Of a stretch of 64,000 bases of DNA, positions 10,962 through 12,320 are shown piece by piece. The stretch comes from Candidatus Krumholzibacteriota bacterium (GTDB lineage Bacteria; Krumholzibacteriota; Krumholzibacteriia; JAJRXK01): the NCBI GenBank assembly GCA_029262065.1, contig JAJDAC010000023.1:3828-67827 (forward strand), given 5' to 3'. Position numbers and translations under genes: made by a program. The notes beneath the pieces are model-generated. The model did no database searches and was not told the origin of the DNA. It was given only the letters and a program-made list of their open reading frames with translations. Each line of letters begins with the position of its first letter. The first letter of the stretch is position 1.

Positions 10962-11579
10962 ATGACCCAATTGGCTCTCTCTTTCTCCCTTCTGGTTTTT
11001 CTGGTATTCGCCGCGGTTGCCCCGGTGGTCTGGTCCCAATGCCCCGAGCCGCCTGCCGTTTCCGAACTCGCCCCGGGTGAATACGGCCTGTTCTTCGATG
11101 CCGCCGGTACGCAACGGTGTTACGCAGGGCCGCTGTTCGTGCCCGCCGTCGACGTGTATCTCGTTGCGGGCGTGCCGCCCGCAGGAATTCGGTTCTTCAA
11201 CGTCTGGGAGTTGATCGTGGACGGACTGGCGGTTCTGAGCCCCCACGGTTCCGTGATCGATACCGACTACACTCACCAGTTCTGGTTGGACTCTTGTGGT
11301 GGGGCGCTTCCCGCACCGGGAGTGACCTGCCCGTCGGACGGCAAGTCCGTGGTAGCACTGGCCCGCTACACCATGCAGGCGTTCGGGTACGGGGACGTTT
11401 GTTTCGAGCGTCTCCAGTGTCCGACGCTCGCCGGCACGTTCCCGACGGAGCCATTCTACGAAACGTGCTCACTCCAGTTTGAGACATTGGCGCTGGTCGA
11501 GGACTCGTGCCTGACCATCCGCGACCCAGCGGTGGCCATAGAATCGACCAGTTGGTCGGCGGTGCGCGGCCGTTTCTAG
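10962..11579 (+). CDS. Small secreted Cys-rich protein, paralog A of a novel family
   Basis: SD-like GGAGAT 6 nt upstream of the ATG. Signal peptide (MTQLALSFSLLVFLVFAAVAPVVWS). Mature part begins QCPEPP, has about 9 Cys and a CPSDGK motif, and ends ...STSWSAVRGRF. Confidence 0.65.
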   Translation: MTQLALSFSLLVFLVFAAVAPVVWSQCPEPPAVSELAPGEYGLFFDAAGTQRCYAGPLFVPAVDVYLVAGVPPAGIRFFNVWELIVDGLAVLSPHGSVIDTDYTHQFWLDSCGGALPAPGVTCPSDGKSVVALARYTMQAFGYGDVCFERLQCPTLAGTFPTEPFYETCSLQFETLALVEDSCLTIRDPAVAIESTSWSAVRGRF

Positions 11580-11678
11580 CCAGTCGGCTTGCCTGTCCTC
11601 GATCCGAAGGTGTACATTCGTTAGGACGAGTCCTGTCCTTCCATCGATTATTCTTGTCGTCTCGATGGAGGTCTTCAG

Positions 11679-12320
11679 ATGTACCTGCGTTTATTGGCTG
11701 TGGCCCTTGCCGGCTCGGCCGTCCTCACGCTTCATGCCGCATCCGCCCGGTCCCAGTGCCCGGGTCCGGAAGCGACCACGTCATTGTTGCCCGGCCAGGC
11801 GGGCTTCTTCTTCGACCCCCTTGGCCTACAAGCTTGCTCGGCGGGGCCGCTGATGCTCGACACCAACGTGTACCTGGTGGCCGCCGTGCCAAAGGGCGGT
11901 ATCGCCGCGTTCTACTCACCCAGCTTGCAGTTGAGCAATACCCTGTTCGACGCGGGGCCGCAGCCGTTCGACCTGGACTACGCCTCCGTTGGCATCGCCG
12001 ACTATTGCCAGGGTTGGATTCCGGCCGACGATGTTCCATGTCCGTCCGACGGCAAGGATGTGATCGTGCTGGGCCGGTACGTCATACGTCCCACCGCCCA
12101 CGGCACCATCTGCGCCGAGAGTCTGTATTGTGGCGGTATCGCCGGTCCCGTGAGTTGGACCGCGGGCGCGCCAACCTGCCAGGAATACGCCGATACAGGA
12201 TTCAGCGCCGTCGACACGACTCTTCAGATGTTCGACGTCCAGGACGACTGTCTGGCGTACCTGGATCCCACCGTCGCGACCACGAACGACAGCTGGTCGG
12301 CCGTTCGCGCCCGCTTCTAG
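11679..12320 (+). CDS. Small secreted Cys-rich protein, paralog B, tandem duplicate of 10962..11579
   Basis: GGAGG SD. Signal peptide. QCPGPE..., CPSDGK and ...NDSWSAVRARF end. Clearly alignable with paralog A over its whole length. Confidence 0.65.
   Translation: MYLRLLAVALAGSAVLTLHAASARSQCPGPEATTSLLPGQAGFFFDPLGLQACSAGPLMLDTNVYLVAAVPKGGIAAFYSPSLQLSNTLFDAGPQPFDLDYASVGIADYCQGWIPADDVPCPSDGKDVIVLGRYVIRPTAHGTICAESLYCGGIAGPVSWTAGAPTCQEYADTGFSAVDTTLQMFDVQDDCLAYLDPTVATTNDSWSAVRARF

Follow-up and report, generated by a model that had tools for sequence, protein, structure and literature searches.

The paralog pair and its family

We analysed a 64,000-nucleotide (nt) stretch of a Candidatus Krumholzibacteriota bacterium, called the window below (assembly GCA_029262065.1, contig JAJDAC010000023.1, positions 3,828 to 67,827, forward strand), with a focus on two adjacent open reading frames (ORFs), A and B, that encode small cysteine-rich proteins. 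The original prediction, made from the letters alone, had described them as tandem paralogs of no recognisable family, each with its own Shine-Dalgarno sequence and signal peptide. BLASTP confirmed the homology (40% identity over 191 amino acids [aa], E value of 2e-38). We read GGAG and GGAGG ahead of the two ATG codons, and each protein has by eye a hydrophobic, signal-like N-terminal segment, 25 residues long, ending in Ser just before Gln-Cys-Pro. The shared motifs that had been cited are all present: SQCP(E/G)P, GPL..VYLVA(G/A)VP, CPSDGK(S/D)V(V/I)xL(A/G)RY and D(S/D)CL...DPxVA....SWSAVR(G/A)RF. The features of the two genes, in window positions, are as follows.

10952..10955, plus strand: gene A Shine-Dalgarno sequence GGAG, 6 nt before the ATG, read from the sequence
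10962 (ATG) to 11577-11579 (stop), plus strand: ORF A, 205 aa
10962..11036, plus strand: gene A putative signal peptide, residues 1-25, MTQLALSFSLLVFLVFAAVAPVVWS, followed by QCP; hydrophobic N terminus by eye, with the family-wide A/S-QCP junction aligned
11037..11522, plus strand: gene A mature domain, a predicted beta-sandwich, residues 26-187, with eight conserved Cys (27, 53, 112, 123, 147, 153, 169 and 183)
11523..11579, plus strand: gene A C-terminal tail DPAVAIESTSWSAVRGRF and stop codon; conserved in the family, 31.4 bits with the tail hidden Markov model (HMM)
11667..11671, plus strand: gene B Shine-Dalgarno sequence GGAGG, 7 nt before the ATG, read from the sequence
11679 (ATG) to 12318-12320 (stop), plus strand: ORF B, 213 aa
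11679..11753, plus strand: gene B putative signal peptide, residues 1-25, MYLRLLAVALAGSAVLTLHAASARS, followed by QCP; by eye, aligned with A and the family
11754..12263, plus strand: gene B mature domain, residues 26-195, paralog of A by alignment; family HMM E value of 6e-64
12264..12320, plus strand: gene B C-terminal tail DPTVATTNDSWSAVRARF and stop codon; 32.2 bits with the tail HMM

The earlier count of eight or nine conserved cysteines was right about their conservation and alignment, and the exact number is eight in A and eight in B, every one in an aligned column. The mature domain of B differs from that of A by a 10-residue insertion ahead of the last Cys. The GC content at third codon positions (GC3) is 0.75 for A and 0.79 for B, the same as for proS, alaS, purB and purL. 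A tblastn search found no third copy in the window, a promoter and terminator scan of positions 10700-12700 gave nothing informative, and the regions upstream of A and B had no element in common.

In word-indexed searches for homologs, A and B each retrieved nothing but themselves. The alanyl-tRNA synthetase of the same contig is a singleton at 90% identity, which indicates that the organism is poorly sampled. When an HMM of the A/B alignment was run exhaustively against 1.84 billion cluster representatives, it identified 17 proteins at an E value of ≤1e-10 (A, B and 15 relatives), and a profile of those 17 recovered 19 proteins from a collection of 5.8 billion sequences. These 19 have no Pfam domain and no name beyond "hypothetical protein." The only relatives with organism titles came from the genome collection, in two Candidatus Krumholzibacteriota metagenome-assembled genomes (MAGs) and one Gemmatimonadota MAG; a genome-contig scan with patterns from the two-sequence A/B alignment had no match there, and a scan with the family alignment led to these three loci. 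Nine further relative loci lie on Joint Genome Institute (JGI) metagenome contigs. The family thus comes from bacteria of soil and sediment about which little is known. Because homologs are kept at 28 to 36% identity in other metagenomes, A and B are real genes under selection, and the conservation of the family excludes the possibility, raised in the original prediction, that the ORFs are not genes.

Family members are about 200 to 218 aa long. Their N-terminal part consists of a signal peptide followed by QCPPPxxSPLxxGExGLFFDxxGTxxC, with Ala before the Gln, and the further motifs are (L/V)YxVARVPEGG(I/V), DxC...CP, C..(x)CPTxAG, Y..C and a final Cys. At its invariant positions the family has Gly, Pro, Leu, Phe, Asp or Cys. 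No family member had a profile match to a characterized family: Pfam gave none for A or B at an E value of ≤1 and none for 20 aligned members at ≤10, NCBIfam gave none for A, B or any of the 20 at ≤10, and PHROGs and the sequences of the Protein Data Bank (PDB), cohesins included, gave none for the family. We conclude from this conservation that A and B represent a real, rare and undescribed family. A neighbour-joining tree pairs A with B as sister branches within a clade that also contains a Krumholzibacteriota sequence, which points to an old, lineage-specific tandem duplication, and every other relative locus has a single copy with no tandem. One homolog, at positions 9998-10648 of locus L003 (MAG JABAOH010003618; likewise in L004 and L018), is broken by an in-frame stop that replaces a conserved Gln (CPVA*GD..), and gene calling split it in two (132 and 75 aa); the stop could be a pseudogene mutation, a sequencing error or a recoded codon.

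Predicted disulfides and fold

We judged cysteine conservation across 36 family sequences, in which eight Cys columns are conserved. Three of these sequences (P0008, P0035 and the L009/P0011 sequence) have neither C27 nor C53, and two (P0007 and P0014) have neither C147 nor C183. No full-length intact sequence among the 36 lacks just one partner of either pair. Because these cysteines are lost pairwise, the alignment supports disulfides C27-C53 and C147-C183, and C112-C123 and C153-C169 would then be the other two, by elimination and proximity.

The pairwise losses also bear on the mature N terminus. A and B are probably exported through Sec, with cleavage before Gln26. By inspection there is no lipobox ([LVI][ASTVI][GAS]C) at the junction, which reads ..W-S-Q-C in A, ..R-S-Q-C in B and A-Q-C in most members, so that Gln occupies the position before Cys27 in the family. 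The loss of C27 together with C53 argues against Cys27 as a lipidation site, and for these two reasons we rejected A and B as lipoproteins. An outer membrane protein beta-signal and a precursor of a ribosomally synthesized and posttranslationally modified peptide were also considered for the pair and rejected.

We built an AlphaFold2 model of A on a 20-sequence alignment (mean predicted local distance difference test score [pLDDT] of 87.3, predicted template modelling score of 0.79). It has the signal helix, followed by an all-beta domain that spans approximately residues 40 to 187. In this model the mature chain, about 180 residues long, forms one beta-sandwich of cohesin-like architecture. 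The modelled fold resembles cohesin modules (Pfam PF00963), among them non-cellulosomal and stand-alone ones such as those of Archaeoglobus (2xdh), Ruminococcus flavefaciens (4n2o) and Clostridium perfringens GH33 (2vo8). A viral fold library gave no match. The cohesin likeness holds at the fold level only, since an hhalign comparison of the family profile with the CipA cohesin 1aoh_A, whose sequence we had verified against the PDB entry 1aoh, gave a probability of 0.05%; Pfam and PDB profile searches likewise showed no sequence-profile match to cohesins. The family also differs from cohesins in its four putative conserved disulfides, its Gln-Cys-Pro mature N terminus and its conserved C-terminal tail, features that are not known to be typical of cohesins, and in lineage, being of the Krumholzibacteriota/Gemmatimonadota type rather than clostridial. 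We therefore call the predicted domain "cohesin-like" and do not file it among the cohesins. The statement that the pair has no recognisable family accordingly stands for sequence profile libraries only; in predicted fold the proteins resemble cohesin modules, and this likeness lowers the novelty of A and B: the family is undescribed in sequence, its fold class is familiar, and secreted hypothetical beta-sandwich proteins are common in MAGs. A literature search on cohesins and Krumholzibacteriota returned general cellulosome papers only.

Periplasmic sandwiches that handle metals, such as the copper-binding YcnI/DUF1775 and PCuAC proteins, are another place where a domain of this kind might belong, and we give that assignment almost no credence. 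YcnI/DUF1775 and Reeler-domain sandwiches had fold scores below those of cohesins. The invariant and near-invariant columns of the family include no conserved His or Met, which argues against both a YcnI-type metal site and an obvious enzyme, and the family has no conserved metal ligands; all of its conserved cysteines behave as disulfide partners. The mature N terminus is Gln-Cys-Pro and not the N-terminal His brace of the YcnI/DUF1775 proteins.

The C-terminal tail and ORF C

Family members end in a tail of about 18 to 20 residues, C-x(1-8)-P-V-x-(V/A)-x(3-4)-(S/T)-W-(G/S)-x-(I/V/L)-(K/R)-x-x-(F/Y), which always lies at the extreme C terminus with zero to three residues beyond the aromatic. 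In the monomer model of A it is not confidently packed onto the domain; residues 191 to 205 or so form a nominal short helix with block-mean pLDDT values of 53 to 57. We searched for the tail with a regular expression and then with an HMM of the family tails against the C termini of 1,671 ORFs, comprising the window and all distinct loci. Family members scored 31 to 46 bits. One ORF outside the family, here called ORF C, scored 18.9 bits (E value of 8.9e-5), the next non-family ORF scored 5.7 bits, and the best internal, nonterminal match scored 8.5 bits.

24374-24895, minus strand: ORF C, small secreted-looking Cys-rich protein by its translation, 173 aa with 9 Cys, tail CSVPVVSASWSELKARFQ

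ORF C has its own GGAG Shine-Dalgarno sequence, a signal-like N terminus and a host-like GC3 of 0.77. Its body is acidic and Thr-rich, unlike the A/B family, and hhalign aligned only its last 19 residues with the family. Pfam had no match for it, and its single-sequence AlphaFold model had a pLDDT of 40. ORF C is convergent to a gene for an HtrA-like protease with Trypsin_2 and PDZ domains (23075-24355). The presence of the tail on two unrelated small Cys-rich, putatively exported proteins of one genome suggests that it is a modular element.

Two candidates that arose in the tail analysis were discarded. An amphipathic helix was considered for the tail and had no support from the helical hydrophobic moment, which was no better than that of shuffled sequences; A, B and ORF C had a slightly raised beta-periodicity moment. 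A regular-expression match, QTWGALKVRF*, near 26549 on the plus strand was put down to chance because it lies in a frame of 17 codons, with a coding remnant opposite it on the minus strand. In the purB-purL intergenic region (26312-26662), the minus strand has an open stretch of about 65 codons, ending ...NLTFSAPHVWKTFPPGTYVIAEYTAPSGIIIEPTRGITVYNACDEGSFSISPCQ*, that looks like a remnant or a small gene and carries what we take to be a Cna-B/SpaA-like PGxYxVxExxAPxG motif.

The same window encodes C-terminal sorting domains of a known kind. The genes at 3728-6307 and 50270-52792 (both plus strand) encode large secreted proteins, namely an M6 immune-inhibitor-A-type peptidase and a Sortilin/BNR-repeat protein. 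Both end in FlgD_ig/Por_Secre_tail domains (NYPNPFNP...R*) and are cargo of the type IX secretion system (T9SS) type. The organism thus already uses C-terminal sorting. Searches that detect these domains in the two large proteins found none in A or B. The T9SS-type C-terminal domains (FlgD_ig PF13860, Por_Secre_tail PF18962/TIGR04183) and the tail are alike in being conserved, at the extreme C terminus and in the same organism group, and both sit on Sec-exported proteins, as the A/B tail would. They differ in that the T9SS-type domains are folded, about 75 to 80 residues long and attached to large enzymes, whereas the tail has about 18 to 20 residues of low model confidence, occurs on small Cys-rich proteins and does not match the models of those domains.

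The tail might then be a new sorting or attachment signal, read by a dedicated machinery for export or for fixing to the outer envelope, with the beta-sandwich as one type of cargo. This idea overlaps with the reading that we prefer below and shifts the biology from the domain to the tail; we consider it rather doubtful. It draws on the tail as the most uniformly conserved linear element of the family, always at the very end, on its recurrence on the unrelated body of ORF C, on the classical sorting domain that the genome has on large enzymes, and on the fact that no NCBIfam sorting-signal model matches the tail. It is weakened by the single non-family carrier, with none more in the flanking sequence fetched around the relatives, and by the composition of the tail, which has no hydrophobic transmembrane segment like those of sortase- and exosortase-type signals. 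No candidate sorting enzyme adjoins any locus, and the residues beyond the aromatic vary, so the free C terminus is not conserved. The fuller claim, that the tail of about 20 residues is an undescribed modular sorting or anchoring signal used alongside the T9SS-type domain in Krumholzibacteriota/Gemmatimonadota-type bacteria, we hold to be unlikely; if it were true, small disulfide-rich surface proteins would form a class marked by the tail, with the cohesin-fold family as the main cargo. A literature search on the tail motif found nothing relevant. C termini of the SWGxIKxxY(R) type may occur in other candidate phyla of the FCB (Fibrobacterota-Chlorobiota-Bacteroidota) group, which we mention as a lead only.

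Neighbourhoods and proposed role

The flanks of the pair are as had been described, with pdxS (SOR_SNZ, E value of 1e-102) and pdxT (SNO) upstream and an M16 peptidase gene downstream. The M16 product is a double M16 peptidase with an HVIEH zinc motif; its description as a lipoprotein is suggested by a noncanonical ..PQFGC sequence alone. From this arrangement it had been proposed that A and B are substrates, inhibitors or partners of the adjacent peptidase, or a linked toxin or adhesin module. The three genes do lie next to each other on the same strand, with about 220 bp between B and the M16 start given by the gene caller. Yet A and B each have a ribosome-binding site of their own and the intergenic gaps measure 100 to 220 bp, and the region is a housekeeping block (proS, pdxST, M16, alaS, SLT, truA and pur genes) in which M16, alaS, proS and pdxST stand together.

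The loci of the relatives have unrelated neighbours. At least seven independent relative loci include none with M16 or pdxST: the fetched loci had neither a called M16 gene nor any homolog of the window M16 ORF, and all-against-all BLAST of the ORFs across loci found no neighbour in common with the window. A JGI metagenome contig (L002), which matches the Gemmatimonadota MAG locus (L010), has a Ser/Thr kinase, DUF3179 and an extracytoplasmic function (ECF) sigma factor near the family gene; the MAG JABAOH01 locus has glycoside hydrolases, a sulfatase and multihaem cytochromes; a soil-lineage locus has a methyltransferase, DinB and exporters of the major facilitator superfamily and ATP-binding cassette types; and a Krumholzibacteriota MAG locus has a kinase and an ECF sigma factor. 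The gene neighbours of the family are not conserved. Given these unrelated neighbourhoods and the single-copy relatives, a functional link of A and B to M16 or pdxST is not supported, and we judge the proposed tie to the peptidase very improbable. There is no sign of a toxin or of a protease inhibitor, and no known family of either kind was matched.

In the Krumholzibacteriota MAG (L009, 5483-9821) and in the L002/L010 locus (L002, 7244-9934 and 13281-13916), the family gene has a Ser/Thr kinase and an ECF-type sigma factor no more than about 3 kb away. This association is absent from the window and may be a coincidence in kinase-rich genomes. The window has a second paralog pair, of tetratricopeptide repeat (TPR) proteins of about 497 aa (41082-42575 and 43340-44836, both minus strand), which are 38% identical over 493 residues and have one short ORF (42698-43327) between them. 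Two other large ORFs have no Pfam match: a 503-aa frame in overlap with the end of proS, which resembles a polytopic membrane protein (7692-9203, plus strand), and a 719-aa protein (60975-63137, minus strand).

The reading that we prefer, tentatively and with a probability of roughly 0.4, is that A and B are exported, noncatalytic, cohesin-like binding or scaffolding modules with a tail that docks in trans, and that their duplication provided two specificities. The precursor of A or B would be exported through Sec and cut before Gln26, and the mature sandwich would be stapled by four disulfides. The domain would be followed by a Pro/Val-rich linker and then by the short aromatic and basic tail, (S/T)W(G/S)x(I/V/L)(K/R)xx(F/Y). 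In the periplasm or on the surface, the domain would act as an extracytoplasmic binder that recognizes proteins or glycans on a face of the sandwich, and the tail would serve as a docking or retention peptide recognized in trans by an envelope partner, the membrane interface or a neighbouring subunit. The paralogs A and B would then have two binding specificities.

Several results weigh against this proposal. The cohesin likeness by Foldseek has an E value of only 1.4e-3, beta-sandwiches are a crowded fold space, and the hhalign probability given above is negligible. No dockerin domain was found among the Pfam-scanned ORFs of the window, and these 64 kb of genome yielded no binding partner, no ligand and no dockerin-type protein. 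A and B have lost the otherwise conserved R and E of the family VARVPEGG motif, so a conserved site there may not be kept in them. As for the tail, its helix in the AlphaFold model is of low confidence, its modularity depends on one extra protein, ORF C, and the sequence fetched around the relatives has no other tail-bearing ORF.

A and B could also be subunits of an extracellular fibre or pilus-like polymer in which the tail inserts into the next sandwich, by donor strand or tail to groove, with the tandem paralogs as major and minor subunits. We think this quite unlikely. No chaperone, usher, sortase or pilin-processing protease adjoins any family member, and neither the window flanks nor any relative locus has a chaperone-usher or type V pilin gene cluster. 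The relatives are single copies in their loci. The sandwich looks complete in the model and does not obviously want a strand, the coordinates not having been inspected for this, and cohesin matches clearly outrank pilins.

For now, A and B belong to a well-described family of hypothetical proteins that presents no mechanistic surprise. A small protein family that has no entry in Pfam, NCBIfam or PHROGs is now defined, and its only relatives with organism titles come from MAGs of phyla that have so far been little characterized. The family gains a testable structural identity, that of a predicted cohesin-fold, four-disulfide binding module. If the domain binds as cohesins do, cohesin-type scaffolding would extend to these candidate phyla, and a tail that proved to be a sorting or docking peptide would be a new address label for envelope proteins.
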